A stretch of 24,000 bases of DNA from an uncultured Gammaproteobacteria bacterium (GTDB lineage Bacteria > Patescibacteriota > Microgenomatia > UBA12405): contig CAZQUM010000004.1 of assembly GCA_964596585.1 (NCBI GenBank), positions 1-24,000 on the forward strand, in the 5' to 3' direction. The position numbers were made by a program, and so were the translations under genes. Of this stretch, positions 9,281-24,000 are shown one piece after another (position 1 is the stretch's first letter; every line of letters begins with the position of its first letter). Under the pieces are notes generated by a model. The model did not search any database. It was not told where the DNA came from and was given only the letters and a program-made list of their open reading frames with translations.

Positions 9281-10888
9281 ATGTCTTTTACCAACCGATT
9301 TAAAAAAATATTCTCCTCTCGTCAGAAAAGTATTTTTTCCGCTACTGTTATTTTAGCGATAACTTTCTTAATTTCTGCATTTTTAGGTTTTTTACGTACC
9401 CGCTTTCTTTATTCCACTTTTTTTAAATGTTGCGTTTTAGAACTTGATGCTTACAATGCTGCTTTTAGAATACCTGATTTGATTTTCAAGCTATTAGTTA
9501 CCGGAGCCCTATCAGCTTCTTTTATTCCAGTTTTTAGTAGCCAGCTTCATCGTAATCCCAAAAAAGCTTATCGCATGGCTTCTTCTCTCATTAATATTCT
9601 GTTGATTGCCTTCATTATTATTTCTTTGCTTGCCTTTATTTTTGCTCACCCTCTTTCAGCTTTAATTGCCAAGGGTTTTTCTCCCCAACAAATCCAATTA
9701 ATGGCCAGCCTCACCCGAGTACTACTTTTAGCCCAGATTTTTTTTCTGATAAGCAATTTTCTTACTGCCATTCTTCAAATAAAACAAGTTTTTATTATTC
9801 CTGCGCTTTCACCCATCCTTTATAACCTTTTTATAATTATAAGCATTTTTACTTTGGCCAAATTTTTTGGAATACATGGAGTAGTTTATGGTGCTGTTAT
9901 AGGCGCTTTTTTTCACATGGCGATTCAAATTCCTGCGGTTATTAAGGTGGGCTTCAAATATTCGCCTATTGTTGATTTTAAATTACCCGGAGTAAGTGAA
10001 ATATTGAGATTAATGCTTCCACGAACCTTATCGCTCGGATTGGCTGAAATCGAAAATACTATTACCTTATTTTTCGCTTCCGGATTATCAGCTGGCTCTA
10101 TTTCTCTTCTCAACCTTGCTCTTCAACTAATCTATTTACCCAGCCGTGTTTTTGGCACCACCGTTGGTCAAGCTTCTCTCCCAGTATTATCAAAAAATGT
10201 TGCCAAAAACCAACTTACTATTTTCCGTCAAACTGTTAGAAAAGCCCTTCTCCATAGTTTATATATTGCCCTACCTATTACCACCCTTGTTTTGATTGAA
10301 AGAGTTGGTATTGTCAGAATTGCTTTCGGTACTCGTCAATTTCCTTGGTCTGCCACCATTCTTACTGCCAAAACTTTAGCCTTTTTAACTCCAGCAATTG
10401 TTTGTCAGGCCGTTATCCAAATATTAATACGTTCGTTTTATGCTCTTCATGATACCAAAACACCCTTAAAAACATCCTTTATTTCCATATTTTCTAATAT
10501 AATTATTAGCTATTTTTTCGTAAATTTTACCTCGTTAGGAATTATCGGTTTATCAATTGGCGCTTCTGTCGGCAATATTATCCAATGTACGTTATTGCTT
10601 CTTCTCTTCTTAAAACGAGTTGATGGTCATGACTGGAAACCAGTATGGCAAAATATTTTTAAAATCTTTTCCGCTTCCCTTATTGCCAGTTTTATTGCTT
10701 GGGTTAGTATCCAGGTGTTGGATTTATTTATTCTCGATACCAGTCGTACTATTAGCGTTATTTTAGTCTTTATAATTTCTACCTTGTTAGGAGTAATTTC
10801 ATACCTAACTCTTACTTCTCTCTTTAAAATTCCCGAATTCGATTATTTTAAGTCATACTTACACCGCCTTTTACGTTTCTTTTCCTAA
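9281..10888 (+). CDS. murJ: Lipid II flippase MurJ (MviN family)
   Basis: 535 aa, polytopic. The signature region AAFRIPDLIFKLLVTGALSASFIPVFS is typical of MurJ/MviN. Confidence 0.9.
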   Translation: MSFTNRFKKIFSSRQKSIFSATVILAITFLISAFLGFLRTRFLYSTFFKCCVLELDAYNAAFRIPDLIFKLLVTGALSASFIPVFSSQLHRNPKKAYRMASSLINILLIAFIIISLLAFIFAHPLSALIAKGFSPQQIQLMASLTRVLLLAQIFFLISNFLTAILQIKQVFIIPALSPILYNLFIIISIFTLAKFFGIHGVVYGAVIGAFFHMAIQIPAVIKVGFKYSPIVDFKLPGVSEILRLMLPRTLSLGLAEIENTITLFFASGLSAGSISLLNLALQLIYLPSRVFGTTVGQASLPVLSKNVAKNQLTIFRQTVRKALLHSLYIALPITTLVLIERVGIVRIAFGTRQFPWSATILTAKTLAFLTPAIVCQAVIQILIRSFYALHDTKTPLKTSFISIFSNIIISYFFVNFTSLGIIGLSIGASVGNIIQCTLLLLLFLKRVDGHDWKPVWQNIFKIFSASLIASFIAWVSIQVLDLFILDTSRTISVILVFIISTLLGVISYLTLTSLFKIPEFDYFKSYLHRLLRFFS

Positions 10889-10913: not shown

Positions 10914-11480
10914 ATGCCTCCTCCGAAAAAGGAGATTTCTTTGTTGCCCAGCGAAGAAAATCTCAACAGTCCTTTAGCCAAGATTACAAAATGGGCCACC
11001 TCGACTGGTCGGGTGGTTATTATTTTTGTGGAATTAATTGTAATCTTAGCTTTTTTATCCAGATTTTCACTTGATAGACGCAATGCGGACCTTTCTGAAA
11101 CTTTACGTCAACAAAAAGCAATATTAGCTAGCACTAAAGATTTTGAAAGTGATTATGTTTCTCTTCAAAAGCGTCTTTCTTATATCAAAGATTTTTACAG
11201 CAATGAGCCCCAATATGTCGCTCTAATTGATTCATTGGTCAGTAGCGTCCCCAATGATATATATTTCCAGCTTTTCACTTTTAAAAAAGATCCTGATAAT
11301 CAACAGTTGTATTGTCAGGCCCAACTGTATTCTTTTCAGGAGCAAAGTTTAATTGATTTTATTACCAATGTTGGGCTTAATCCGGACGTAGAATCTGTAA
11401 ATGTCCAAAAAATTGAGAAAAAAGCCAAAGATAATAAATACTTTCTCGATGTTACTATTTTCTTCAAAAAAAATGGATAA
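10914..11480 (+). CDS. pilN: PilN-like type IV pilus assembly protein (bitopic)
   Basis: 188 aa. N-terminal EISLLP (compare the PilN INLLP motif), one TM helix (VVIIFVELIVILAFL), a coiled coil, and a C-terminal alpha/beta region with L..LVSSVPNDIYF. The assignment rests on architecture and motif only. TATACT lies 9 nt upstream of the ATG. Confidence 0.5.
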   Translation: MPPPKKEISLLPSEENLNSPLAKITKWATSTGRVVIIFVELIVILAFLSRFSLDRRNADLSETLRQQKAILASTKDFESDYVSLQKRLSYIKDFYSNEPQYVALIDSLVSSVPNDIYFQLFTFKKDPDNQQLYCQAQLYSFQEQSLIDFITNVGLNPDVESVNVQKIEKKAKDNKYFLDVTIFFKKNG

Positions 11481-12063
11481 CATCAACATTTCTCGTTTAA
11501 ACCCACTTTTTGTGTATCTCAGAAAACAACGTGAAAACCAACGTTTTATGCGGTATTTAGAAATTAGCGCCACCTTCATTTTAATTACCTTTTTTGCTTT
11601 CTTTGCCCTTAAACCGACATTTTTTACTATTTCCAAGCTCTTAGGTGAAATCAAGTCTAAACAAAACTTAACCCAACAATTAAGAGAAAAAATTGACGAT
11701 GTTATTATTGCTCAAGATTTATTCTCCCAAGTTCAAGAAAGATATTATCTAGTAGATGCTAGTCTTCCAGAATCTCCCGGTCTTTATCGGACTAATTCTC
11801 AAATTAATTATGCAGCCAACAGTTCTGGGTTAAACCTATCGAAACTTGAATATAATTTGGATGAAAATGATTATTATTCCGTCAGTATTAATTCCGGAGC
11901 TTCTTTTTCTCAGGCATTAAGTTTACTCGGAGAAATTCTGAACAACCGTCGTCTGACTGAATTACAAAATCTCAGTTTTGCTGTTGATGAAGCCAGCATG
12001 GGTGCTCAACAGATAAATATGACCTTACCATTAAAGGTTTTTTATTGGCCACAAAATGAATAA
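11473..12063 (+). CDS. pilO: PilO-like pilus assembly protein (bitopic)
   Basis: I start at ATG 11473 (MDNINISRLNP...), which overlaps the upstream stop by 8 nt, rather than at 11401 inside the previous gene. One TM helix (ISATFILITFFAFFAL), a coiled coil (KSKQNLTQQLREKIDDV), then LVDASLPESPGL. Architecture-level call. Confidence 0.45.
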   Translation: MDNINISRLNPLFVYLRKQRENQRFMRYLEISATFILITFFAFFALKPTFFTISKLLGEIKSKQNLTQQLREKIDDVIIAQDLFSQVQERYYLVDASLPESPGLYRTNSQINYAANSSGLNLSKLEYNLDENDYYSVSINSGASFSQALSLLGEILNNRRLTELQNLSFAVDEASMGAQQINMTLPLKVFYWPQNE

Positions 12064-12265
12064 ACGAAAAATATCTGGCTATTTTCTTTTTTTATCAATT
12101 AGTACTTTTTTAGCAGTTTTTTTCTTTATCTTTCAAAAAAGCTATGACAATTTAATGAATGATTCTCTGATTGAAGAAAATGCTTCTATCAGCCAAGGTA
12201 TTTCTCCTAATCTTGATATCAAAGTTTTAGATGAAATCGAAAAAAGGCAGGGGATTTCTCCATGA
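12056..12265 (+). CDS. Small single-pass membrane protein (hypothetical, pilus-like operon)
   Basis: 69 aa. TM helix GYFLFLSISTFLAVFFFIF. Translationally coupled on both sides: an ATGAATAA overlap upstream and an ATGA overlap downstream. Confidence 0.45.
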   Translation: MNKRKISGYFLFLSISTFLAVFFFIFQKSYDNLMNDSLIEENASISQGISPNLDIKVLDEIEKRQGISP

Positions 12266-13521
12266 AAAGTAAAACAATCCCCACTATTTTAGGTATTTTT
12301 TTTCTTATAGCTATATTAGTGGCTGGAGTTATTCTTTCTACCAAAAGAACTAGTTTTGATTCTTCTGCAAGCTCTAGCTGTGAAGTGGTTAATCCTCAAA
12401 TTACCAATCTCACTCATTTTTCCTTCGACCTTTCTTTTACCACCACTGGTGACAATTGTTCACCAACCTTATCTGTGAATAATAAAATTTATGAAGATTT
12501 ATCAAAAAGTGCTACCACCCATTATTTTAGGGTTGCTGGCTTGCAGCCAAAAGCTGACTATGAATATAAAGTAATTTCTGGAGGTAAAACTTTTGCCCCC
12601 ATTCTTTTTCGAGTGACTACGGCTTCTAAACCTTCAGGAGCTACTCCTAGCTCAAATTTAGCTTGGGGTAGGGTATTAGACGAGAACCTTGAACCAGTTT
12701 CTAATGCGCTGCTTTATTTGAGTCTCTCCGGGGCTCAACCTCTTTCTGCCCTAACTAATGCTCAGGGACAATGGAACATTCCATTGTCCAACACCTTCAA
12801 TGAAAATAAAAATGCTTGGTTTACACCCCAGGACACCCAAACTGAAACTATTGTTGTTTATAGTTCAAATAATCAGGTTATTTCCGTAGACAATAAAACA
12901 GACAACAACGATCCGGTCCCAGACATCATTTTTGGTTCAGATAATTTTCAAACCGACAACCCCATCCAAACCAATATTCCTCTTACAAATAATTTAACTC
13001 AAAATTATGTAACCCTTTCCATTAATAGTCCCAACGAAGGGGAAACTATTTATACCCAAAGACCGGATATTTTTGGAACAGGACAGGCTGGATCTGTTTT
13101 TAATATTAATATAGGCGGACAAGAAAGTAATATTACTGTACCAGCCGACAATACTTGGCATTGGTCACCATCGGAAAATCTAAGCAATGGCCCTCATAGC
13201 ATTTTTTTAAGTTATCAAGAAACTAATATTACTCGTAATTTTGTTGTCGCCGCTGGCAATCAATCAAATTTGTCCTTTACCGCCACTCCCTCAGCCACCT
13301 TATTTCCTACTCAATTACCATCTCCTTCTCCCACCTTATTTATTGCTCCTACTACAGTAGTTCCCACCAATACTCCCGAGCCAACCACAACTATAAGAAC
13401 TGCTAAAATTTCAACCACCTCTAGCTTGATAGAAAGTGGCACATCCTTCCCCACCATTTTGCTGGCAATCATAGCCTTCTTGCTTTTCAGTATTTCTTTT
13501 TATTATTACCAAGAAAATTAG
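12262..13521 (+). CDS. Multi-domain surface protein: N-terminal TM/signal anchor, FN3-like, carboxypeptidase-regulatory-like and Ig-like domains, Pro/Thr/Ser stalk, C-terminal TM anchor
   Basis: 419 aa. FN3-like stretch ITNLTHFSFDLSFTT...HYFRVAGLQPKADYEYKV. Prealbumin-like stretch GRVLDENLEPVSNALLYL...TNAQGQWNIPL. Ig-like stretch LSINSPNEGETIYTQRPDIFGTGQAGSVFNINI. Stalk TPSATLFPTQLPSPSPTLFIAPTTVVPTNTPEPTTT. C-terminal FPTILLAIIAFLLFSISFYYY. An SD-like AGGGGA lies upstream. Confidence 0.7.
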   Translation: MKSKTIPTILGIFFLIAILVAGVILSTKRTSFDSSASSSCEVVNPQITNLTHFSFDLSFTTTGDNCSPTLSVNNKIYEDLSKSATTHYFRVAGLQPKADYEYKVISGGKTFAPILFRVTTASKPSGATPSSNLAWGRVLDENLEPVSNALLYLSLSGAQPLSALTNAQGQWNIPLSNTFNENKNAWFTPQDTQTETIVVYSSNNQVISVDNKTDNNDPVPDIIFGSDNFQTDNPIQTNIPLTNNLTQNYVTLSINSPNEGETIYTQRPDIFGTGQAGSVFNINIGGQESNITVPADNTWHWSPSENLSNGPHSIFLSYQETNITRNFVVAAGNQSNLSFTATPSATLFPTQLPSPSPTLFIAPTTVVPTNTPEPTTTIRTAKISTTSSLIESGTSFPTILLAIIAFLLFSISFYYYQEN

Positions 13522-13526
13522 CTTTT

Positions 13527-13535
13527 TGATATCAT
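13527..13535 (+). promoter_or_regulatory. Extended -10 element (TGaTATCAT) 6 nt upstream of GTG 13542
   Basis: TGATATCAT-tacatt-GTG. Same geometry as at 22927 and 3814. Confidence 0.35.
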
Positions 13536-13541
13536 TACATT

Positions 13542-14447
13542 GTGTTAGCGCTTATTCAAGCCCTTCGGCCCAATCAATGGATTAAAAATCTAAGTATTTT
13601 TGCGGCAATTATTCTCACTAGTCAACTTTTTAATCCATCTGCATTTATTTCCACCCTCTTGGCATTTATTTCTTTTTGTTTTCTTTCCTCCTCATCATAT
13701 CTCATAAATGATATTGTCGATATCGACAAAGACCGCCTTCACCCCATCAAAAAAAACCGTCCTATTGCCCGAGGCGATGTATCTAAACAGTTGGCCATAA
13801 TAGTATCCATAATATTACTAATTCTGGGCTTACTTATCGCCTCATTTGTTAATAGTGCTTTCTTTATACTGGCATTAACATTTATTATTCTTCAATACTC
13901 TTATTCTTTTCTAATAAAGAAGAAGGCAATTTTAGACATTATGGGTATTGCCTTGTTTTTTATAATTCGCACTTATGCCGGAGAATTATCCAGTGGTTTC
14001 CACCTACCTGTTTGGATTTTGTTAGCCGTTATCTTCCTTTCTCTTTTTATTGCCAGTGGCAAAAGGAGAAGTGAATTGTACCGCAGTGGCAAATTAACCA
14101 GAAAAGCATTGGAAGGTTACAATAAAGCTCTTTTAAATTTTTACACTACTATTTTTGCTGTTTGCACTCTTATTTGTTATGCCATGTTTACTTTTCTTGC
14201 GGAACCACTTAGTTTTGACGGAGCTCTTCATCAATTTCTTTTAGAAAATTACCCCTCTGCTCTTGATAGAAAGTGGTGGATGATTACACTAATTCCTGTT
14301 ATTTTTGGAATTATGCGCTATGGTCAAATTATTTTTGAGATGCAGGAAGGAGAGCGACCCGAAAGAGTTGTTGCCACTGATATCCCACTTTTAGCCTCAA
14401 TAGTCCTTTGGGGGCTGATGATAATTACTATCATCTATGTACTTTAA
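13542..14447 (+). CDS. UbiA-family prenyltransferase, decaprenyl-phosphate phosphoribosyltransferase-like (DPPR synthase subfamily)
   Basis: 301 aa with a GTG start. Subfamily-type motifs: LRPNQWIKNL, YLINDIVDIDKDRLHPIKKNRPIARGD (NDxxDxxxDRxHPxKxxRPxAxG), FFIIRTYAGE, SGKRRSEL. About 8 TM segments. Confidence 0.75.
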   Translation: MLALIQALRPNQWIKNLSIFAAIILTSQLFNPSAFISTLLAFISFCFLSSSSYLINDIVDIDKDRLHPIKKNRPIARGDVSKQLAIIVSIILLILGLLIASFVNSAFFILALTFIILQYSYSFLIKKKAILDIMGIALFFIIRTYAGELSSGFHLPVWILLAVIFLSLFIASGKRRSELYRSGKLTRKALEGYNKALLNFYTTIFAVCTLICYAMFTFLAEPLSFDGALHQFLLENYPSALDRKWWMITLIPVIFGIMRYGQIIFEMQEGERPERVVATDIPLLASIVLWGLMIITIIYVL

Positions 14448-15897
14448 GCCTTCAAAAATAATATTGGCGGTCCTTTTTTTCTTTGCTGTTTTTACCCGTT
14501 TTTACAAACTAAATTGGGGCGATGGTTATTATTTTCATCCCGATGAAAATAATATGGCCACTGCTCTATCTCAACTTACACCACAAAACTTAAACCCACA
14601 TTTTTTCGCCTATGGACAATTTCCCTTATATCTCGGATATTTTTCACTAAGACTTTTTAATTTACCCAATACAATGCTAAATTCAACCATTATTTTGCGT
14701 TTTTATTCTGCTTTTTTTTCTCTACTTTCATTATATTTTTTTTATAAAACTTTTCCAAATATATATTTTCTAATTCTATTAATTTTTACCCCAGGATTAA
14801 TCCAATTAGCTCACTTTGGTACCACCGAATCCTTGCTTATTTTAGTTTTTATTAACAATCTCTTTATAAGTAAATTGCTGCTTAATAAAGTTAAATTTAA
14901 GTATTTATTTTGGGCGTCGGTAATTAGCGCTGTTGGAATTTCCACTAAAATTTCTGCTCTCTTTTTTACCCTTCCAGTTTTACTGGCTCTTTTTTTAAAA
15001 AAATCGTGGTCTATTATTCCCTTCATTTTTTTCACTTTTATTTTCTCACTAATTCTCTCTCCTTATAATTTAATTTCTTTTCCTGACTTCCTCTCTTCCA
15101 TGCGTTACGAAACAGCAGTTGCCTCTGGCGCCTTACCGGTTTTTTATACCCAACAATTTTCAAAAACCATTCCTTATCTTTTTCAATTTACTCATATTTT
15201 CCCCTATGTTGTTGGATTACCTGTTTTTATCTTTAGTTTTTTTTCTTTAAAAAACTTTAAAAAAATTTTTAAGGATAAATTTAATTCCATTGTTTTTATT
15301 TCAACCTCACTATATTTTCTTTACTTTGCCCAGCTTTATGTTAAGTGGACTCGGTTTATGTCACCAATATTTTTTGTTTTTCCCTTATTAGCCTCATATT
15401 TTATAAAGCGTTTTCCCCGGTTAATTTTTCTGGCCATTTTACCTGGATGTTTTTTTATGGTTAATTATTTTAAAACAGATACCCGTATTATTGCTTCTAA
15501 TTACCTTACAAACAATCTTCCTTCCAATAGCACCTTATTGTCAGAAAGCGGCAACGTTATCAGTCTCCCCTTGGGAGCACACGATATCAATACCATTGAT
15601 TATGATTTCTATAACGACAATTATTCTCCGCAAAAACTAGCCCAAACACTTGTTCGTTCTGACTATATTCTCGTACCTTCAAGACGAGTTTTTAAAAATT
15701 ATTCTTTCCCTTATCACCAAAATTTATTCAATGAAAAACTTGGTTTTTCTCTCCAAAAAGTTTTTCAACCCTTCCCCGATTTTTTGTTAAAATCTGAAAA
15801 TGCTGAAGAAACTTGGACAGTTTTTGATCGACCAACTCTTCGTTTTTATCAAAAAACCAAAATATTTTCTGCTGCTGATTATGAAAAAGCACTTTAA
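14437..15897 (+). CDS. GT-C-fold-like polytopic membrane glycosyltransferase (ArnT/PMT-like), paralog 1
   Basis: 486 aa, many TM helices. First-loop acidic motif LNWGDGYYFHPDENN. A C-terminal soluble region ends ...AEETWTVFDRPTLRFYQK. The start overlaps the upstream gene by 11 nt. Confidence 0.65.
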   Translation: MYFKPSKIILAVLFFFAVFTRFYKLNWGDGYYFHPDENNMATALSQLTPQNLNPHFFAYGQFPLYLGYFSLRLFNLPNTMLNSTIILRFYSAFFSLLSLYFFYKTFPNIYFLILLIFTPGLIQLAHFGTTESLLILVFINNLFISKLLLNKVKFKYLFWASVISAVGISTKISALFFTLPVLLALFLKKSWSIIPFIFFTFIFSLILSPYNLISFPDFLSSMRYETAVASGALPVFYTQQFSKTIPYLFQFTHIFPYVVGLPVFIFSFFSLKNFKKIFKDKFNSIVFISTSLYFLYFAQLYVKWTRFMSPIFFVFPLLASYFIKRFPRLIFLAILPGCFFMVNYFKTDTRIIASNYLTNNLPSNSTLLSESGNVISLPLGAHDINTIDYDFYNDNYSPQKLAQTLVRSDYILVPSRRVFKNYSFPYHQNLFNEKLGFSLQKVFQPFPDFLLKSENAEETWTVFDRPTLRFYQKTKIFSAADYEKAL

Positions 15898-17560
15898 AAA
15901 AAATATTATTTTTTTAATTTTTATTATCGCTTTTTGCCTACGAATTATCGGTCTCAATTGGGATCAAGACAATCACCTTCATCCTGACGAAAGATTTTTA
16001 ACGATGCTTACTGCAGATATTCGTTTCCCCAGTTCAATACAACAATATTTTGATACCAAGACATCCCCCTTAAATCCGTACAATAATCCTCAATACAAAT
16101 TTTTTGTCTATGGCACTTTCCCAGTTTTTTTAACAAAATTTTTTGCAACCGTTTTTAACGGAGATAACTATAATTCCATTACCATTATTGGCCGGATATT
16201 GTCAGCCTTATTAGATTCCGCTAATATTTTTTTCCTCTATCTAATTTTTAAAAAAATTGCCCCGAAAAATAAATTATATTTTCTCCCATCGCTCATTTAC
16301 GCTTTGATGCTTCTGCCTCTTCAGCTTTCTCATTATTACGCTGTCGACACTTTTTTAAATTTTTTCTTGCTATTAACTTTTACTCTACTTATTTACAAAC
16401 GCTTGTTTCTCGCCTCAATTAGTTTTGCCCTTGCCCTTACTTGTAAAATTACCGCTTTCTTATTTTTACCTATTATTTTTTTGACAATAATCTATTTATT
16501 CTTTCGCAATTCTTCCCCTAAAAAAACCCTATTATCTCTCCTTCCAGCTACCATAATCATCTTTTTAGTTTTTAGAATTTTTCAACCATATTCTTTTAAT
16601 GGTCTTATTTCTCCAAATCCTGATTTTATTAATTCTCTCAAAAACTTATCTCAATTTTCTAAACCAGATGTTTATTATCCTCCCGGAGTTCAATGGTTAA
16701 ATCGTCCCATCCCTTTTAATTCTCTTTTAAATAATATTCTTTGGGGATTAGGCTTACCCTTTTCCATTTTATTTGCCATATTGGTTTTAAAATCTTTGAA
16801 AAAAATTAAATTTAACTTTTCAATTATTGCTATTATTTCTTTTTGGATTTGTTGTCTTTTCTTTTTTCAGGCCTTTCAATTTAGCCATGCTTTACGTTAT
16901 TTTTTACTAATTTATCCATATTTGGCCATAGTAGTTTCTTATCTTTTATCAAAATATAATTCTCCCAAAAAATATTTATCTATATTTATTCTTTTCCATT
17001 TTTTAACCGCCCTCTCTTTTTTAGGAATTTATTTCCGTCCGCATTCCCGAATTCAAGCCAGCCAGTGGATTTTTGAAAATATTTCTCCAGAACAAGTTTT
17101 AAGTAATGAATATTGGGATGATGCCCTTCCTTTAAATAGTGACTCATATCAAAATATTTCCTTACCACTTTTTGATCCTGATACTTACGAAAAATGGCAA
17201 AATATTACTCCCGCTCTCGAGCGGGTAGATTATATGGTTTTATCTAGCAATCGACTTTGGGGAACAATACCTAGAGTACCTTTGCGCTATCCAAACACTG
17301 CTCGTTTTTATAAAGATTTATTCTCTGGTCAGGGAAATTTTACCCTCATTAAAAAATTTGTTTCATATCCCGGCTTTACCTTTTCTTCAATGAAAAAATG
17401 TGTTTATATTGGTCCTAGCAATTATCCCGGAATTAAAAACCATTTTATTGACATTGATTACGATTGTCTTTATCCGGGCATTTATTTTAGAGATGATATT
17501 GCCGAGGAAACCTTTACTGTTTACGACCATCCTCAAGTACTAATTTTTAAAAAAAAATAA
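15881..17560 (+). CDS. GT-C-fold-like polytopic membrane glycosyltransferase (ArnT/PMT-like), paralog 2
   Basis: I start at ATG 15881 (MKKHFKKNIIFLIF...) rather than 15800, which lies 98 nt inside the upstream gene. It shares LNWDQDNHLHPDERF and the C-terminal AEETFTVYDHPQVLIFKK with paralog 1. Confidence 0.65.
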   Translation: MKKHFKKNIIFLIFIIAFCLRIIGLNWDQDNHLHPDERFLTMLTADIRFPSSIQQYFDTKTSPLNPYNNPQYKFFVYGTFPVFLTKFFATVFNGDNYNSITIIGRILSALLDSANIFFLYLIFKKIAPKNKLYFLPSLIYALMLLPLQLSHYYAVDTFLNFFLLLTFTLLIYKRLFLASISFALALTCKITAFLFLPIIFLTIIYLFFRNSSPKKTLLSLLPATIIIFLVFRIFQPYSFNGLISPNPDFINSLKNLSQFSKPDVYYPPGVQWLNRPIPFNSLLNNILWGLGLPFSILFAILVLKSLKKIKFNFSIIAIISFWICCLFFFQAFQFSHALRYFLLIYPYLAIVVSYLLSKYNSPKKYLSIFILFHFLTALSFLGIYFRPHSRIQASQWIFENISPEQVLSNEYWDDALPLNSDSYQNISLPLFDPDTYEKWQNITPALERVDYMVLSSNRLWGTIPRVPLRYPNTARFYKDLFSGQGNFTLIKKFVSYPGFTFSSMKKCVYIGPSNYPGIKNHFIDIDYDCLYPGIYFRDDIAEETFTVYDHPQVLIFKKK

Positions 17561-17567
17561 CTAAAAA

Positions 17568-18326
17568 ATGTTTCAAAAAATTTCCTATTACTTAAGCACC
17601 TCTTTATCCTTGTTAAGTAATGTCAAAAGGCTAACTTTCTCTGAAAATTTTCTCCGGGTTACTTTAAAAGATAACAGTATTTTTTTTACCAGAAATATAA
17701 TGGATTTATGGATTATTGCTGAATCTTACCTTAATCGAGATTACGAAAAAAATGGCCAGGAAATTGGTCCTAATTGGCAAATAATTGATATTGGTGCCGC
17801 CTTTGGCGATTTCTCTATTTTTGCGGCAAAACGACAAAAAAATATTCGTGTAATTGCCGTAGAACCTTTACCCAATTCTCAGCTCTTATTACAAAAAAAT
17901 ATAAAAGTAAACGGTCTAACAAATATCATCATTCATTCAGGGGCACTTTATTCAAAAAAACAATTTTTACATATTACTGAAAACAACAAAAATTTTGGCA
18001 ATAGCTCAACTCTTTCCTCCTCCCCTAAAGGGATAAAAGTACCCGCTATTACCCTCTCAGATCTATTTAAAAAATACAAAATTAAACACTGTCATCTGAT
18101 TAAATCAGACTGCGAAGGTGCCGAGTACGATATTTTTTTAAATACTGATTCAAATATATATAAAAAAATAGATCGAATTGTTATGGAATATCATCTTTTT
18201 TCTCGCAATTCTTCAAAAAAATTGAAATCCTTAACCAAACTATTAAATCACCAAGGATTTAACGTAAACCTCACTCCAAACCCGGTTCATTCACAACTAG
18301 GTTTTTTATATGCGCACAAAAATTAA
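17568..18326 (+). CDS. FkbM-family SAM-dependent methyltransferase
   Basis: 252 aa. Motifs: IIDIGAAFGDFSIFAA (SAM-binding glycine motif), VIAVEPLPNS, LIKSDCEGAEYDIF. Confidence 0.8.
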   Translation: MFQKISYYLSTSLSLLSNVKRLTFSENFLRVTLKDNSIFFTRNIMDLWIIAESYLNRDYEKNGQEIGPNWQIIDIGAAFGDFSIFAAKRQKNIRVIAVEPLPNSQLLLQKNIKVNGLTNIIIHSGALYSKKQFLHITENNKNFGNSSTLSSSPKGIKVPAITLSDLFKKYKIKHCHLIKSDCEGAEYDIFLNTDSNIYKKIDRIVMEYHLFSRNSSKKLKSLTKLLNHQGFNVNLTPNPVHSQLGFLYAHKN

Positions 18327-18995
18327 ATTTGACGGTGTTTTTTCTTTAAGCTGGTAGCCTTTTTTTTCAATATTTTTAATATTTTGTTTGGAAATATTTT
18401 CTATGCAAATTACCCGTGGTTTAGTTTTTTCCCATGGCCAAGATTTTATTATTTGGTTATCAAAACCTTCTGTATCCACTGACAAAAAATCAATTTTAAA
18501 ATCAACAATTTCCTTCACTTCCATTATTTTTACCTTCGTTATTTTTTCCAAAACATGCCCTTCTTTAACTGACTTTTTTGCTCCTTGCTTAGAAAAAGTA
18601 TTAAGAGCTGGAATATAAAATTGATAATAATTTAAAAAACCCTTTTTATTACCTACTCCAGCTTTAATATAAATATCTTTAGGTCTCACTTTTTTGAAAT
18701 AACTTTCTATATTTATATTCGGTTCTACAACTTTTCCACTCCATCCTTTTTTATAAAATCGATAAGTATTGCTTAATCTAGTTGGATGATAAGCTCCAAT
18801 TTCTAGGTATTTTCCCTTAAAATCTTTTGGAAAATATTTTTCTATTAATAAGTCCTCACCATTTTGAGAAAAGGAATTTTTAATTTTTTCCAAAAAAAAT
18901 TTACGATATATTTCCCTTATTCCAGCAATTGCTATTTCTTTTACCGAGTAATTTTTTATTAATTTATTCAATTGAAAATGCTCTTTCATAGTCAT
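18306..18995 (-). CDS. FkbM/Methyltransf_21-like methyltransferase
   Basis: 229 aa. Motifs: YLEIGAYHPTRLSNTY, GKVVEPN, FLSVDTEGFDNQI. It lies downstream of the GT4 gene on the same strand. Confidence 0.65.
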   Translation of the reverse strand: MTMKEHFQLNKLIKNYSVKEIAIAGIREIYRKFFLEKIKNSFSQNGEDLLIEKYFPKDFKGKYLEIGAYHPTRLSNTYRFYKKGWSGKVVEPNINIESYFKKVRPKDIYIKAGVGNKKGFLNYYQFYIPALNTFSKQGAKKSVKEGHVLEKITKVKIMEVKEIVDFKIDFLSVDTEGFDNQIIKSWPWEKTKPRVICIENISKQNIKNIEKKGYQLKEKTPSNLIFVRI

Positions 18996-20052
18996 CTACC
19001 GTTTTTTTGTAATCAAACAATTCCAAATTGACAGCTTTTTGTTGGTAGTATTTTTTACCTCTTTTTAACACTAAATTTATTTTTTTTGCCAAGTCTTTAC
19101 TGTCGGCAACTTTAGAAATTTCTCCCATCCTGCTAATTTTTACCGGTACTCTCACCCCCGGTAAATTAGATGCAACCACCGGTGTTCCACATTTTATTGC
19201 TTCTGCTTGAACCATTCCAAAGGCCTCTAAATTGTTAGTGCTAGGTAAAACCAAACAATCAATTTTTTTATAAAAATTAACTAATTCTTTATCACTGATT
19301 CTACCTAATAAACGGGCATTTTTACCCAATTTATTTTTTATTAAATCATAGGTATTGTCTTTATCCAGCTGATTATAAGGTCCTACTAATTCCAAATTTG
19401 CTTTTATTTTTTCCATTGCTTTTACCAAATACGGCAGACCTTTTTCCCAGCTAATTCTACCCACAAAACCAACTATTTTTTGTTTCTTTCCTTGTCCCAA
19501 TTCATTTCCATACTCAGTTAGCTTAATCGGTGGAAAAGTATATATTAATTTTTTTTCAAATTGATTTAAAAATTTTGAATGTTTTGCATAATCCTTACTT
19601 GCTACCACAATTTTATCTGCCATTTTATAAACTAACCAGTGAAGGGGATAAGTAATATAACCGATAATTCGATTCCCAAAATTCCCTCCCCAAAATTCAC
19701 AGTGATGAGTTACCACCAGTTTTTTATGATATATTTTTGCCCATATAGCCAACCATAACGATTCTATTGAGGGTAAATGGGGATTTATAATTTCCGCCCT
19801 TTTAACCATGGCCTTTGCAATTTTTGGATAATTCCACATCAAAAACCCCTTACTTATTTTTTGCCCAGGGATTCTTGTTATTTCTACACCATTACTCTTT
19901 TCTTTTGGCTTTAAATTTTTACTAAATTGGCTACTTATTACCCTTACATCATTTCCTCTTTTCGTTAATTCCTCAGCCAAAATTTTTGCATAATTAGTTA
20001 GTCCAGAAATATGAGGCGAGTAGTAGGTAACTCCAATAAGGATTTTTGCCAT
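18964..20052 (-). CDS. Glycosyltransferase family 4 (GT-B, retaining type)
   Basis: I use ATG 20052 (MAKILIGVTYYSPHISGLTNY) instead of the TTG at 20064 given in the track. The C-terminal E-x7-E region EAFGMVQAEAIKCGTPVVASNLPG is present. Confidence 0.85.
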   Translation of the reverse strand: MAKILIGVTYYSPHISGLTNYAKILAEELTKRGNDVRVISSQFSKNLKPKEKSNGVEITRIPGQKISKGFLMWNYPKIAKAMVKRAEIINPHLPSIESLWLAIWAKIYHKKLVVTHHCEFWGGNFGNRIIGYITYPLHWLVYKMADKIVVASKDYAKHSKFLNQFEKKLIYTFPPIKLTEYGNELGQGKKQKIVGFVGRISWEKGLPYLVKAMEKIKANLELVGPYNQLDKDNTYDLIKNKLGKNARLLGRISDKELVNFYKKIDCLVLPSTNNLEAFGMVQAEAIKCGTPVVASNLPGVRVPVKISRMGEISKVADSKDLAKKINLVLKRGKKYYQQKAVNLELFDYKKTVDDYERAFSIE

Positions 20053-20056
20053 AAGC

Positions 20057-20072
20057 TGATACAATTATCTCA
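20057..20072. promoter_or_regulatory. Overlapping divergent extended -10 elements (plus TGaTACAAT, minus TGaGATAAT)
   Basis: Plus 20057..20065 lies 26 nt before the PAP2 ATG. Minus 20072..20064 lies 11 nt before the GT4 ATG at 20052. Confidence 0.35.
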
Positions 20073-20091
20073 TCAAACTTAAACTGCTACC

Positions 20092-20661
20092 ATGACCAAT
20101 ACCTCCATTTTATTCTGGCAATCCAAAAAAGACTACCTACGTCTATTATCGTCTAAAAAAATAGGTAAAATATTCATCGTTATTTTTAATTATTTAATTT
20201 GGGTTTTCTTTTTTTATCTTTCATATCTTTTAATCAAAATAGACATTAAAATTTTATGGCAACTTCTTTTTGCTACTATTTTTTCTGAAATTATTGAAAG
20301 ATATCTCAAGAATAAAAAATTTTGGTGCCGACCCATGTATAATCACCACGATTCCACTCCTTCTGGTCTAGTTGACTCTTGGTACAAAACAGGCTCTTTT
20401 CCTTCTGGTCATAGTATTAAAAGTGCTTTCTTTTTTCTCTTTCTGCTTCAATATCAAATTTATTCACCTTTAATCTTTATCCTTGTTACTGGCTTACTTC
20501 TTTCATTTAGAGTCCTAGTGGGCTTTCATTATTTAATTGATATTTTTGGTGGCTTTATTATTGGGATTATAATTTGGTTTGTTGTTCATTCTTGGCAAAT
20601 CGATATTCCCTTAAATTATTTTATACAGAATATTTTTAATTTTATTTTTAGGATAAACTAA
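20092..20661 (+). CDS. PAP2-family polyprenyl/lipid phosphate phosphatase
   Basis: 189 aa membrane protein with all three PAP2 motifs: KNKKFWCRP (Kx6RP), PSGHS, and RVLVGFHYLIDI (Rx5Hx3D). Confidence 0.8.
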   Translation: MTNTSILFWQSKKDYLRLLSSKKIGKIFIVIFNYLIWVFFFYLSYLLIKIDIKILWQLLFATIFSEIIERYLKNKKFWCRPMYNHHDSTPSGLVDSWYKTGSFPSGHSIKSAFFFLFLLQYQIYSPLIFILVTGLLLSFRVLVGFHYLIDIFGGFIIGIIIWFVVHSWQIDIPLNYFIQNIFNFIFRIN

Positions 20662-20665
20662 ATAT

Positions 20666-22915
20666 ATGATTACTGATTTCCAACACATTTTTTTATGGTG
20701 GCTAACTACTTTTTTTCTTTCACTACTATCTCTTCCTCTAACCTTTACTATTTTTAAAAAATTTTGGGATAAAGGTTATATTTTCGCAAAAACATTGTCT
20801 TTTTTTCTGCTTAGTTATTTAGTTCTTGTATTGGGAATTGCCCATATTTTACCCTTTACCTATCCTGCTCTAATCATTGTTTTTATTATCTATGCTTTTG
20901 TAAATATATATTTTTTTGCTAGGAATTTCCATCAATTTAAATCTATTTTTAAAAATTTTTGGAAAATATTTTTAGTTGAGGAGATAATTTTTTTCATTAT
21001 TCTAGCCCTTTGGTCTTATCTTCGCGGTTTTGCTCCGGACATTGAAGGCTTAGAAAAATTTATGGACTGGGGTTTTGTAAATTCAATTTTACGTAGTCGC
21101 TTTTTTCCTCCTGCCGACATGTGGTATGCCAATCATCCAATTAATTATTATTATTTTGGCCATTTTGTTTTTGCCCTTATCACCAAAGTCTCTGGTATTA
21201 ATTCGGCAATTACCTACAATCTCTCAATTGCCACTCTCTGTGCCCTTAGTTTTGTCTCTACCTTTTCTTTAACCTCAAATTTGGTTTTTCATTCTCTCAA
21301 AAAACCCTTGGCAAAATTTTATTTAGTTGCTGGTTTTCTTTCCGCTTTTTTATTAACATTTGGAGGTAATTTTCATCTAATTTACCGACTGGGCAGGGGA
21401 GTCTTGTCTAACCATCAAACTATAGCCGAAGCTTCGCAACAATATTGGTACCCTGACGCCACACGTTTTATTGGTTTTGATCCTGATACTACAGACAAAA
21501 ATATTCATGAATTTCCGATATATAGTTTTGTTGTTGCCGATCTCCACGGCCACTTAAATGATCTTCCTTGGGTCATTCTTATCACTGCTTTTTTCTTTTC
21601 TGCATTTGTGCTGTCTAAAAAGATTTCACCATTAATTTTTATCCCTAGTGGCCTATTTCTATCAATTGCCTATATGACCAATGCTTGGGATTTTGCCGTA
21701 TATGGACTCCTATTTGCTTTGACACTGCTATTCATTAGTAAAGATTTCAAAAAAACTTTTATTATGGGTATTTTGACAATTATCGCTTGGTTTATTTTTA
21801 CTCTGCCCTTTTCTCTCAATTTCACTCCCATGACCGAAGGTCTTCGTTTTTCTGATGTTCACACTCCCTTTTATCAACTTTTTATTTTATATGGTGGTTT
21901 TTGGCTTATATGTTTTCCTTTTTTATTTTTCCTTTTCAAAAACCGACATCGGCAAAAAATTCTCCTCACCGATTATTTTGTTTTGGCCATGATAATAATG
22001 GCCACTATTTTGGTTATTATTCCCGAAATTGGCTACATTAAAGATATTTACGTTTATGATTATCGTCGAGCCAATACCATGTTTAAATTGGTTTATCAGA
22101 CTTTTATTTTATATGCTTTGTCCGCCGGTTATGCATTTATTCGCCTCAGAAAAAATATTTTTTACAAATTAATTTTTTGTTTGGTTTTCATTGCTCACAT
22201 GTCTTATACCTATTTTCCCATTAAATCTTATTATGGTTTAAAAAATTATCAAAGCCTTTGGGGACTAAATTTTATTCAAAATACTGCCCCCGATAATTTG
22301 GAAGCTATCAATTGGCTTAACGAGAATGTCTCTGGTCAACCCCACATTATTGAAGCCCAGGGCGACAGTTACACCACTTTTAATCAAGTTTCGATGGCTA
22401 CCGGTTTACCCACCATTCAAGGCTGGCTGGTTCACGAATGGCTTTGGCGTGGTGGCTACGAGGCCCCCGCCGCCCGCCAACAAGAAGTTGATAGTGTCTA
22501 TCAATATTTATCTAATTTTTTAGAAATTTCCAAAATAAATTCAAATAATTTTGATGAATATATTGTTCAACCCGGGGATTCTCTTTGGAAAATATCAGAA
22601 ACAATGATTGGAGATGGTAATTTATGGAAGAAGTTAGTTGAGATAAATGAAATAAAAAATCCCTCTATTATTCAGCCTCTTCAAAAAATAATAATTCCCA
22701 AGGTTGAAAGTGAAATAAGTCAAGAAATATCAAATGATAATTCTATAACCTTAGAACAAATTGAAGATATTTTGCAACGTTATCAAGTAAAATATATTTT
22801 TATTGGTGCTATGGAATGGGAAAAGTATCCTAATATTGATTTGAATATTTTAGATAATTTAAAAGCCAAGCAAGTTTTCCAATCCGGTAATACCTATATT
22901 TTCGAGCTACCCTAA
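20666..22915 (+). CDS. DUF2298 / 'Chlor_Arch_YYY' family polytopic membrane protein (GT-C-like) with an inserted LysM domain
   Basis: 749 aa. Family-type motifs: EKFMDWGFVNSILRSRFFPPADMWYANHPINYYYFGHF and LPTIQGWLVHEWLWRGGY...VDSVYQ, plus the C-terminal YIFIGAMEWEKYP. A LysM signature YIVQPGDSLWKISETMIGDGNLWKKLVEINEIKNPSIIQPLQKIIIP is inserted at about 22559..22699. Confidence 0.75.
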   Translation: MITDFQHIFLWWLTTFFLSLLSLPLTFTIFKKFWDKGYIFAKTLSFFLLSYLVLVLGIAHILPFTYPALIIVFIIYAFVNIYFFARNFHQFKSIFKNFWKIFLVEEIIFFIILALWSYLRGFAPDIEGLEKFMDWGFVNSILRSRFFPPADMWYANHPINYYYFGHFVFALITKVSGINSAITYNLSIATLCALSFVSTFSLTSNLVFHSLKKPLAKFYLVAGFLSAFLLTFGGNFHLIYRLGRGVLSNHQTIAEASQQYWYPDATRFIGFDPDTTDKNIHEFPIYSFVVADLHGHLNDLPWVILITAFFFSAFVLSKKISPLIFIPSGLFLSIAYMTNAWDFAVYGLLFALTLLFISKDFKKTFIMGILTIIAWFIFTLPFSLNFTPMTEGLRFSDVHTPFYQLFILYGGFWLICFPFLFFLFKNRHRQKILLTDYFVLAMIIMATILVIIPEIGYIKDIYVYDYRRANTMFKLVYQTFILYALSAGYAFIRLRKNIFYKLIFCLVFIAHMSYTYFPIKSYYGLKNYQSLWGLNFIQNTAPDNLEAINWLNENVSGQPHIIEAQGDSYTTFNQVSMATGLPTIQGWLVHEWLWRGGYEAPAARQQEVDSVYQYLSNFLEISKINSNNFDEYIVQPGDSLWKISETMIGDGNLWKKLVEINEIKNPSIIQPLQKIIIPKVESEISQEISNDNSITLEQIEDILQRYQVKYIFIGAMEWEKYPNIDLNILDNLKAKQVFQSGNTYIFELP

Positions 22916-22926
22916 ACATTAATTGA

Positions 22927-22935
22927 TGTCATAAT
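22927..22935 (+). promoter_or_regulatory. Extended -10 element (TGtCATAAT) 5 nt upstream of GTG 22941
   Basis: TGTCATAAT-tagaa-GTG. An in-frame TAA at 22932..22934 rules out any start further upstream. Confidence 0.35.
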
Positions 22936-22940
22936 TAGAA

Positions 22941-24000
22941 GTGCCAAAAAACGATATCCTTTCTTCGCTTAACCCCCAACAGCTATCTGCCGTCACCTAT
23001 GAGGGCGGACCTCTGTTGGTTCTAGCGGGAGCCGGTTCTGGAAAAACTCGGGTATTAACTCATCGTGCCGTATATTTTGTTCAGCAAAATTTAGCCACTC
23101 CTAAAGAAATACTTTTACTCACTTTTACCAACAAAGCTGCGGGGGAAATGAAGGACAGAATGAATAAATTATTAAGCGTCTCAACAAAGAATAATCAAGT
23201 TTTTGCTGGCACCTTCCATTCATTTTGTTGCCAAACCCTCCGTATTTATGGGCGTAAATCAAATATTGATTCTAATTTTGTTATTTACGATTCAGATGAT
23301 CAAGAAAATTTACTCAGATCAATTTTAGCTGACATGAGTCTTTCTCCCAAGGAATTCAAACCCTCATCTATTCTTTATTTTATTGAATCCGCCAAAAACT
23401 TATTCCTATCTCCCGCTGATTCCATTGCTCAAGCCAATGATTTTTGGAGCACTCAGGCCAGTAAAATTTATAATCGCTATCAACAAAAAATGTCCGAATT
23501 TAATGCTCTTGATTTCAATGATTTGCTTTTTAAAACTGTTGAGCTTTTAACTACCCAGCCGGAAGTATTATCCAAATTACATAGCCAATATAAATACATT
23601 TTAGTTGATGAATATCAGGACACCAACCAAATACAATATTTATTAACCAAAATCTTAGCCCAACAAAATAAGCAGATTACTGCTGTCGGCGATGCTTCCC
23701 AATCAATTTATGGTTGGCGTGGAGCCGATTATCGTAACCTAGTTTCATTTACCAAAGATTTCTCTAATGCTAAAGTAATCAATTTAGAAGAAAACTATCG
23801 TTCTACTCAGATTATTTTAGATGCTGCCAATTCAGTAATTTCAAAAAACACTAAGCATCCAGTTTTAAAATTATTTACCAAAAAACAAAGTCCAATAAAA
23901 ATTAAGGTTTATGAATCTGATTCAGAAATTTCCGAAGCTGATTATGTTGCTTCCCAAATAAAAAATATCTCTCAAAATTATCATTTTGATTATAAAGATA
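22941..24000 (+). CDS. pcrA: ATP-dependent DNA helicase, UvrD/PcrA family (N-terminal part; continues beyond the right edge)
   Basis: Absent from the track because it is open to the edge. My translation from GTG 22941: MPKNDILSSLNPQQLSAVTYEGGPLLVLAGAGSGKTRVLTHRA (motifs Q and I), LLLTFTNKAAGEM (Ia), GTFHSFC, ILVDEYQDTN (II), VGDASQSIYGWRGAD (III). No stop before 24000. Confidence 0.9.
   Translation, partial: MPKNDILSSLNPQQLSAVTYEGGPLLVLAGAGSGKTRVLTHRAVYFVQQNLATPKEILLLTFTNKAAGEMKDRMNKLLSVSTKNNQVFAGTFHSFCCQTLRIYGRKSNIDSNFVIYDSDDQENLLRSILADMSLSPKEFKPSSILYFIESAKNLFLSPADSIAQANDFWSTQASKIYNRYQQKMSEFNALDFNDLLFKTVELLTTQPEVLSKLHSQYKYILVDEYQDTNQIQYLLTKILAQQNKQITAVGDASQSIYGWRGADYRNLVSFTKDFSNAKVINLEENYRSTQIILDAANSVISKNTKHPVLKLFTKKQSPIKIKVYESDSEISEADYVASQIKNISQNYHFDYKD

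Follow-up and report, generated by a model that had tools for sequence, protein, structure and literature searches.

What is a member of the UbiA prenyltransferase family doing directly downstream of pilus-like genes, in the company of a phosphatase, three large membrane proteins, two methyltransferases and a glycosyltransferase, in a bacterium of the Patescibacteriota? The question is raised by a stretch of 24,000 nucleotides (contig CAZQUM010000004.1 of assembly GCA_964596585.1, positions 1 to 24,000 of the forward strand), referred to here in its whole length as the window, which was deposited under the name of an uncultured Gammaproteobacteria bacterium and assigned by the Genome Taxonomy Database (GTDB) to Microgenomatia, UBA12405. 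An initial annotation read the cluster at 13542-22915 as a polyprenyl-phospho-pentose type of glycosylation module, and all eight of its genes proved to lie where they had been placed and to belong to the families named. The answer that we favour, and consider reasonably probable, is that this region is the form taken in Shapirobacteria by an operon for cell-envelope glycosylation that the Microgenomates, within the candidate phyla radiation (CPR), have conserved, and that it uses a lipid-linked ribofuranose donor.

The UbiA homolog itself (13542..14447, + strand; Pfam UbiA, E 3e-25) is predicted from its sequence to be a polyprenyl-phosphate 5-phosphoribosyltransferase (PPPRS). Its best NCBIfam model is NF008978, decaprenyl-phosphate phosphoribosyltransferase (DPPRS), at 207.7 bits for a cutoff of 207; two further DPPRS models score 191.5 and 160.9 bits, both under their own cutoffs, whereas all models for quinone, heme, chlorophyll and digeranylgeranylglyceryl phosphate (DGGGP) prenyltransferases stay at or below 57.5 bits. 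The 482-position model NF006088 ("UbiA family prenyltransferase") matches at 162 bits, over model positions 194-382 only. The closest relative in the PDB is Mycobacterium tuberculosis Rv3806c (8j8j, E 6.4e-37), followed at a distance by AfUbiA (E 1.5e-12), DGGGP synthase (1.8e-6) and ApUbiA (0.065), and the homolog thus groups with the DPPRS enzymes, as had been expected from the motifs RPNQWIKN, NDIVDIDKDRLHPIKKNRPIARG and KRRSEL, all of which are present. The published structure of Rv3806c identifies R22, K28, Y70, N73, D77, K87, R90, Y138, K143 and Y157 as ligands of phosphoribosyl pyrophosphate (PRPP) and Mg2+, and reports that conservation of these phosphoribose-binding sites does not extend to other UbiA enzymes (PMC10994848). 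Nine of the ten (R22, K28, Y70, N73, D77, K87, R90, Y138 and K143) are identical in the homolog; the tenth, Y157, is replaced by Phe, as it also is in some mycobacteria (PMC10994848). Among the top 120 matches listed, all of them close Shapirobacteria relatives, the orthologs share 68% identity or more throughout Shapirobacteria, the highest conservation in the cluster and well above that of the neighboring membrane glycosyltransferases. The databases name these orthologs in two ways: DPPRS for some Shapirobacteria at NCBI, and 4-hydroxybenzoate polyprenyltransferase for many at the Joint Genome Institute (JGI).

The second enzyme of such a pathway would be a phosphatase. The PAP2 protein (20092..20661, + strand; Pfam PAP2, E 4e-15), the end of whose gene is separated by 4 nt from the start of the DUF2298 gene that follows, contains the three catalytic motifs reported in the initial annotation, KNKKFWCRP at residue 73, PSGH at 104 and RVLVGFHYLID at 140, and is by analogy with Rv3807c a candidate polyprenyl-P-ribose-5-phosphate phosphatase. 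Its association with the UbiA homolog was examined by scanning genomes with a DUF2298 alignment, which identified no fewer than 572 relatives. The best 80 loci, all from Microgenomates, were kept, their open reading frames (ORFs) called and clustered, and the clusters annotated; counts given below out of 64 refer to those loci in which 8 kb or more of sequence precedes DUF2298. A phosphatase stands beside DUF2298 in all 35 UbiA loci, being PAP2 in 32, a haloacid dehalogenase (HAD) family protein in two and both in one. The HAD protein of these relatives (cluster c17) has the motifs FDLDGV, ISGR/ISSR and DDD and no transmembrane (TM) segment; it matches only the BT0820-type HAD family (E 6e-5) and gave no match to NF006088, the model of the fused PRP-PPPRS enzyme. 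The two phosphatase types known for this pathway are the PAP2-type Rv3807c and the HAD-type PRP domain of Citrobacter ORF15 (PMC11127046), and the alternation of PAP2 and HAD in a single slot appears to mirror both of these solutions. A crude estimate of PAP2 topology, from hydropathy and the positive-inside rule, was unstable across orthologs and was not used.

If a lipid-linked pentose is made, enzymes able to use it should be found nearby, and here the candidates are three large proteins that had been described as resembling glycosyltransferases of the GT-C fold. The claim is borne out strongly for two of them, P2 (PMT_2/GT39-83-like; 14437..15897, + strand) and P3 (15881..17560, + strand; the ORF opens at 15800, with 15881 the most likely start), and only moderately for the DUF2298 protein. 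P2 and P3 are full-length paralogs (28% identity, E 2e-23). Neither has a Pfam family match of its own, the protein O-mannosyltransferase families PMT and PMT_2 included; among 30 members of their family, PMT_2 is found in 16 (best E 8e-14) and PMT in seven, and the family profile matches glycosylphosphatidylinositol (GPI) mannosyltransferase I in the PDB (E 1.3e-4). PDB searches with the single sequences of P2, P3 and the DUF2298 protein returned nothing useful. The AlphaFold2 model of P3 is of high quality (predicted local distance difference test, pLDDT, 88.8; predicted TM-score, pTM, 0.90), and of its 42 best Foldseek matches in the PDB almost all are GT-C enzymes, including ALG9 (E 1.6e-7), ArnT (3.8e-6), ALG12, STT3, AglB, Pmt4, DPY19, ALG6, AftA and EmbB, the remainder being GPI-transamidase (PIG-U-type) chains. 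Both proteins carry the motif HPDE at residue 34, directly after the first TM helix; P35, D36 and E37 do not vary across the family alignment, and the full motif occurs in 100 of 113 members. The first extracytoplasmic loop is the site of the catalytic acidic residues of GT-C enzymes, the DE motif of the PMTs being an example. At the level of structure models, a confident GT-C fold is strongly confirmed for these ancient paralogs, and the ordered P2-P3 pair recurs in 51 loci, comprising all 38 UbiA loci and 13 without UbiA. The two proteins also share a beta-rich C-terminal domain of about 160 amino acids (residues ~400-559 of P3) that has no Pfam match, contains conserved cysteines (C507 and C529 in P3) and ends in the motif AEE.FTVYDHP; it presumably lies outside the cytoplasm and may serve to bind the acceptor or a carbohydrate.

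The third protein (20666..22915, + strand) combines a DUF2298 ("YYY") membrane domain (PF10060, E 3e-87; TIGR03662, E 8e-121) with a C-terminal LysM domain (E 1e-9) that is carried by only a subset of the orthologs. Its AlphaFold2 model (pLDDT 77.6, pTM 0.82) has just two high-probability membrane-domain matches in Foldseek, STT3 (7oci_F, E 1.8e-4) and AftA (8if8, E 2.9e-3), and a comparison of profiles by hhalign found no relationship between DUF2298 and the P2/P3 family. A GT-C fold for the DUF2298 protein is thus likely on the modeling, not established. The family is a large one, with 7,582 representatives at 50% clustering for E <= 1e-3 and 1,571 for E <= 1e-30, and a literature search that included its alternative names found no paper giving DUF2298 a function.

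The arrangement of these genes is itself informative. On three long contigs from relatives the order is MurJ, a PilN-like and a PilO-like protein, a small protein, an Ig-like protein, UbiA and two or three PMT-like proteins, followed by one or more methyltransferases, GT4, PAP2, DUF2298, UvrD, FemAB and GatCAB. This order is kept in at least 35 genomes, down to about 47% identity in DUF2298, and its recurrence in dozens of independent genomes shows that the genes have not come together by chance; conservation of the neighborhood had been one of the expectations of the initial annotation. Among the 64 loci, UbiA is present in 35, PMT_2-type GT-Cs in 62, the Ig-like stalk protein in 48, GT4 in 29, a methyltransferase in 15, a short-chain dehydrogenase/reductase (SDR) in 19 and, beside DUF2298, the gene of a LytR-CpsA-Psr (LCP) ligase in 22. 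In the window the genes from pilN through the first FkbM methyltransferase (10914-18326) lie on a single strand with overlaps or gaps of no more than about 25 nt and, because of this common strand and their overlapping or nearly abutting ends, probably form one operon; a scan for promoters and terminators gave counts at chance level and was uninformative on its boundaries.

The interval between P3 and the phosphatase is, by comparison, a variable cassette, holding in one relative or another FkbM and class-I methyltransferases, GT4, SDR, DUF362, an MprF-type flippase-like protein and extra PMT_2 paralogs. In the window it encodes two S-adenosylmethionine-dependent methyltransferases of the FkbM family, at 17568..18326 (+ strand; Pfam Methyltransf_21, E 4e-20; TIGR01444, E 1.3e-30) and 18306..18995 (- strand; Methyltransf_21, E 1.2e-16), whose orthologs occur in only four and five loci, respectively, and a GT4 enzyme of the Leloir-type, cytoplasmic kind (18964..20064, - strand; Glycos_transf_1, E 7e-31; Glyco_transf_4, E 4e-14). 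O-methylation of the product had been thought probable; the two genes are indeed there, but they belong to the strain-variable part of the locus. A GalE/RmlB-like SDR is found in the cassette of about a third of the UbiA-type relatives. An MprF-type protein (PF03706, TIGR00374) lies just upstream of PAP2 in five relatives (for example L053:8494-9480, + strand); it is a possible donor flippase there, and the window has no such gene.

In 29 of the 64 loci no PPPRS was found within 10 kb, so that the coupling of this enzyme to DUF2298, which had been singled out as unusual, is not obligatory; in the more distant, Levybacteria-type loci an HMM search over that distance found none either. The slot that UbiA would occupy is taken in Levybacteria-type loci by a flavin adenine dinucleotide (FAD)-dependent oxidoreductase (cluster c15; Amino_oxidase, E 3.5e-22; NF005560, "hypothetical protein", 382 bits), which usually shares the interval before DUF2298 with an SDR resembling HpnA and with a soluble phosphatase of the HAD type; this arrangement is recorded for loci L052-L084, with genes at L069:3797-5074 (+), L052:8370-9410 (-) and L030:9355-9897 (-) as examples. 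UbiA and the oxidoreductase are nearly mutually exclusive, with 35 and 23 of the 64 loci and both in one. The oxidoreductase was considered as a UDP-galactopyranose mutase and rejected as such, for it lacks a GLF domain and has no matches besides Amino_oxidase and NF005560. The pairing of an oxidoreductase with an SDR recalls DprE1/DprE2, yet these loci have no PPPRS within 10 kb.

Upstream of UbiA, the genes that had been called pilus-like are genuine homologs of pilN and pilO. The PilN homolog (10914..11480, + strand) has the N-terminal motif ISLLP and by itself matches Pfam PilN weakly (E 0.003), while its family matches PF05137 in 17 of 17 members (best E 2e-13) and as a profile finds Myxococcus PilN (3jc8, E 5e-5); the IxLLP motif of PilN is the one that binds PilM. 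The PilO homolog (11473..12063, + strand, from the probable start at Met25 of an ORF that opens at 11401) belongs to a family in which 13 of 18 members match PF04350 (best E 9e-17) and whose profile matches the structures 3jc8_O (E 1.5e-10) and 2rjz (E 1.2e-6). Next comes a small conserved membrane protein of 69 amino acids (12056..12265, + strand) whose start and stop overlap the neighboring genes; it has no Pfam or NCBIfam match, and its tblastn homologs (cluster c9) hold the same position in 36 loci. MurJ, a flippase of the multidrug/oligosaccharidyl-lipid/polysaccharide (MOP) superfamily (9281..10888, + strand; Pfam MurJ, E 1.2e-70; MatE, E 1.9e-7), precedes the pilus genes and is found upstream in 21 related loci, inverted in some.

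The last gene before UbiA (12262..13521, + strand) encodes an Ig-like surface protein of 419 amino acids with weak Big_13 and CarboxypepD_reg matches. Its family, found in 52 loci, has a uniform architecture in which a TM or signal anchor at the N-terminus is followed by Ig-like domains and a Ser/Thr/Pro stalk, and then by an LPXTG-like motif, a hydrophobic helix and a tail. The stalk is present in 50 of 50 full-length members (best 50-residue segment 0.46-0.76 Ser/Thr/Pro), and residues 330-395 of the protein in the window are 53% Ser, Thr or Pro. A motif of the form [LVIMA]P.[TSA]G (VPxTG, IPKTG, LPPTG) stands before the C-terminal helix in 33 of the 50 orthologs, often followed by a basic tail; the protein in the window has a degenerate LIESG motif and an acidic or neutral tail, YYYQEN. 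To judge by its sequence, the C-terminal layout of the family is that of a sortase-type cell-wall sorting signal; the window itself contains no sortase gene. The stalk had been one of two acceptors suggested at the outset, and being conserved, probably co-transcribed and rich in Ser, Thr and Pro it is a good candidate. The other was the protein at 4917-5531 (- strand; 204 amino acids, with a TM anchor at its N-terminus, a short linker rich in Pro and Thr and a globular domain that matches no family), which nothing links to the cluster.

How might these components work together? Kelly et al. (PNAS 2024, PMC11127046) have described a three-component system, in which a PPPRS with its phosphatase, a flippase and a GT-C enzyme together attach alpha-ribofuranose on the outer side of the membrane; the sugar is converted to xylofuranose where an SDR epimerase is present, and to arabinofuranose where DprE1/DprE2 are. 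In the pathway that we propose for the present locus, the UbiA enzyme would transfer 5-phosphoribose from PRPP to polyprenyl phosphate at the cytoplasmic face, a step suggested by the conserved active site of Rv3806c. The PAP2 protein would then remove the 5-phosphate and leave polyprenyl-P-ribofuranose, as its strict co-occurrence with UbiA and the precedent of Rv3807c suggest. Because the cluster encodes no epimerase, and the window no DprE1/DprE2-like gene (as the initial annotation had noted), the sugar probably stays ribofuranose, a donor that fits the precedent of Citrobacter O1 (PMC11127046); the SDR of some relatives could give another pentofuranose. The lipid-linked donor would next be flipped across the membrane and used on the outside by at least one of the three GT-C-type enzymes, the P2/P3 pair and the DUF2298-LysM protein. 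The GT4 and the two FkbM methyltransferases would form a strain-variable cytoplasmic cassette, probably building or decorating the glycan before export. As acceptor the Ser/Thr/Pro stalk of the 12262-13521 protein is slightly favored over a wall polymer, because of the PMT-like GT-Cs and of probable co-transcription with the stalk protein; a peptidoglycan-linked polymer is the main alternative, and a polymer of the cell wall is as plausible an acceptor as a protein, or more so.

Several observations weigh against this pathway and are best considered together. The cutoff of NF008978 is passed by the UbiA homolog by only 0.7 bits. In the DUF2298 model the most conserved loops are poorly modeled, and the fold matches are modest, with TM-scores of 0.37-0.48. 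The usual site of action of PAP2 enzymes is the outer face of the membrane, and the one encoded here also has weak matches to undecaprenyl-diphosphatase models (E 8e-5), which allow a role in carrier recycling. No gene for a dedicated flippase (GtrA, SMR or MATE) lies at 13542-22915; MurJ is the only MOP-family protein and the only candidate flippase near the cluster, and is probably the flippase for lipid II. In the 29 loci without a PPPRS inside 10 kb the GT-Cs are still present, so that none of the three is strictly tied to that enzyme. Finally, a target in the cell wall and not a protein is suggested by the LCP ligase gene of the relatives, by the LysM domain and by the proximity of FemAB and MurJ.

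This last group of observations leads to the strongest of the alternatives, one that we regard as possible though less than probable: that the same donor serves to build a glycopolymer of the cell wall or a lipoglycan, comparable to mycobacterial arabinan and lipoarabinomannan. GT4 would then prime a lipid or polymer in the cytoplasm, the three GT-Cs would elongate or branch it outside the membrane, and the product would be attached to or associated with peptidoglycan. Such an acceptor is suggested by the peptidoglycan-binding LysM domain on the DUF2298 protein, by the LCP gene that adjoins DUF2298 in so many loci, by FemAB downstream and MurJ upstream in the loci of relatives, and by the number of transferases, three GT-Cs with a GT4 and methyltransferases resembling a set for polymer assembly; AftA, moreover, is the second-best fold match of DUF2298. 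However, the LCP gene is on the opposite strand in the relatives and absent from the window, only some of the orthologs have LysM, the cell-wall neighbors may reflect the housekeeping synteny of small genomes, and the window contains no genes for polymer export (Wzx or an ABC transporter).

It is also conceivable, though we think it unlikely, that these genes are merely neighbors and that no single pathway joins them, with the GT-Cs using a polyprenyl-P-hexose from another source, PAP2 acting as a general undecaprenyl-diphosphate phosphatase and the product of the PPPRS serving elsewhere. The persistence of the GT-Cs without a nearby PPPRS and the weak undecaprenyl-diphosphatase matches of PAP2 would both be accommodated in this way, and PMT_2 enzymes are best known for the transfer of hexoses and of 4-amino-4-deoxy-arabinose. 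Such independence is difficult to reconcile with the occurrence of UbiA and phosphatase together in every one of the 35 loci, with the fixed positions and overlaps of the genes, and with the conservation of UbiA, the highest in the cluster; furthermore, the only known role of a PPPRS is to supply a glycosyl donor to GT-C enzymes (PMC11127046).

The presence of genuine pilN and pilO immediately upstream, probably in the same operon, raises the further idea of a TfpW-like system, in which lipid-linked pentofuranose is polymerized onto type IV pilins encoded elsewhere. There is a precedent in Pseudomonas aeruginosa (bioRxiv 10.1101/2020.04.19.049825), and type IV pili are widespread in Patescibacteria, with glycosylation of their pilins predicted (PMC11623550). 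Nevertheless, the window contains no gene for a pilin, PilM, PilB, PilC or prepilin peptidase, and DprE1/DprE2 is missing from it as well. The 69- and 419-residue proteins were considered as pilins and rejected, direct reading of their sequences finding a class III signal in neither. Pilin glycosylation, one of the products first envisaged, consequently finds no direct support here, and we consider it quite improbable. Least credible of all is an ordinary prenyltransferase role for the UbiA homolog, on aromatic or lipid substrates, of the MenA, UbiA, CyoE or DGGGP synthase type and with no link between the cluster and pentose, for which the homolog's membership of the superfamily and the JGI label of many orthologs might speak, and against which stand both the wide gap between the DPPRS and the other model scores and the presence of phosphoribose-binding residues that other UbiA enzymes do not conserve.

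If we return to the ribofuranose pathway with the stalk as its acceptor, a bolder version can be put forward tentatively, and with some doubt: a lineage-wide operon linked to pilN and pilO in which a wall-anchored stalk is O-ribofuranosylated, DUF2298 and P2/P3 are two new families of pentofuranosyltransferases, and the Levybacteria-type cassette of FAD-oxidoreductase, SDR and HAD is a new route to a modified lipid-linked donor. Were it true, DUF2298 would be a previously unrecognized GT-C pentofuranosyltransferase family, one without a characterized member, and the locus in any case gives a testable biochemical hypothesis for that family, from PRPP through polyprenyl-P-ribose to GT-C transfer. 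The exchanges of UbiA for the FAD oxidoreductase and of PAP2 for HAD in sister lineages can be used in assigning functions. The initial annotation overstated the rarity of such a module outside actinobacteria and a few proteobacteria, in view of the systems described by Kelly et al. (PMC11127046) and of the DPPRS names that NCBI already gives to Shapirobacteria orthologs. The type of pathway is known and its key enzyme already annotated in databases; here it has unusual partner enzymes, in an unexplored group. A literature search found no paper linking Patescibacteria to DPPRS or a pentofuranose pathway, and a 2024 study of the pili of Saccharibacteria calls glycosylation there "unexplored" (PMC11623550). 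The members of the CPR, whose envelope glycobiology is essentially uncharacterized, live in attachment to other microbes, and the glycans at their surface are thus likely to mediate both contact with the host and resistance to phages.

The window as a whole has a GC content of about 33% and is densely packed with housekeeping genes (tryptophanyl-tRNA synthetase, L25, a Sua5-TsaE fusion, TsaD, TatD, methionyl-tRNA synthetase, S20 and MurJ). Candidatus Shapirobacteria, Woesebacteria and other Microgenomates account for nearly all of the homologs that its proteins have, which marks the genome as one of the CPR and as Shapirobacteria-like; two of the proteins have identical copies on a 13-kb Logan contig (P0001, P0241). 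The 365-residue protein at 3833-4930 (+ strand) joins Sua5/YrdC (TsaC) to TsaE, an unusual fusion of two components of N6-threonylcarbamoyladenosine tRNA modification, with TsaD nearby at 5553-6575 (+ strand). The methionyl-tRNA synthetase (7538-8944, - strand) is short, with 468 amino acids, and lacks the C-terminal tRNA_bind domain of the 583-residue ortholog in locus L002. The open frame at 22935..24000 (+ strand), which runs off the end of the window, is taken from the gene order of relatives to be the N-terminus of a UvrD/PcrA-type helicase. The GTDB records of many of the relatives (L008, L014, L015, L019 and others) are also entitled "uncultured Gammaproteobacteria bacterium", and other Microgenomates loci (L009, L066, L082) bear the titles "Candidatus Methanoperedens", "Acidiferrales" or "Lysobacterales"; as their gene content and synteny are clearly those of Microgenomates, these titles are mislabels or the contigs were mis-binned.

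Among characterized systems, that of Citrobacter youngae O1/O2 (ORF15, ORF14 and ORF12) offers the broadest parallel. In both, a UbiA-family PPPRS would start from PRPP and be followed by a phosphatase step, a GT-C of ArnT/PMT_2-like fold would act outside the membrane, ribofuranose would be the default without an epimerase, with an optional SDR epimerase in some relatives, and the cluster lies within a strain-variable glycan cassette. The differences are equally clear: the phosphatase is here a separate PAP2 protein rather than an N-terminal HAD domain fused to the PPPRS, a MATE or SMR flippase gene is not part of the cluster in the window, and there are three GT-C candidates (the two PMT_2-like paralogs and DUF2298), the GT-C of the three-component systems being one of family GT136. 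The host, too, is a monoderm-like member of the CPR without O antigen, and the operon is shared with pilN, pilO and a sortase-type stalk protein. Pentofuranose systems would in this way be extended to a new phylum, with other phosphatase and GT-C partners.

The mycobacterial decaprenyl-P-arabinose pathway is matched in the PRPP-binding site of the PPPRS (nine of the ten Rv3806c ligands), in its separate PAP2-type phosphatase (Rv3807c), in the encoding of several GT-Cs together and in the resemblance of the modeled DUF2298 fold to AftA. In contrast to that pathway, the window has no DprE1/DprE2, so that arabinose is probably not made, the GT-Cs are by sequence neither Emb nor Aft proteins, and phylum and envelope are different. 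The system that attaches D-arabinofuranose to group IV pilins in P. aeruginosa (TfpW, PsPA7_6246-6249) likewise has a PPPRS-based donor, a GT-C and pilus genes close by. It differs in having an adjacent pilin, DprE1/DprE2 and a GtrA-like gene, none of which is found here, where the pilus genes are those of the alignment proteins PilN and PilO. TfpW may itself translocate its donor, a separate flippase not being needed in some hosts (bioRxiv 10.1101/2020.04.19.049825), and thus sets a precedent for clusters that encode no flippase.

The P2/P3 family, finally, recalls the PMTs and ArnT (GT39/GT83), in that some of its members match PMT or PMT_2, an Asp-Glu pair is found in the first extracytoplasmic loop and a Ser/Thr-rich candidate acceptor is encoded next door. 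P2 and P3 of the window depart from these enzymes in falling below the Pfam thresholds and in having no polyprenyl-P-mannose synthase nearby; the only donor pathway that their cluster encodes is the predicted one for a pentofuranose.

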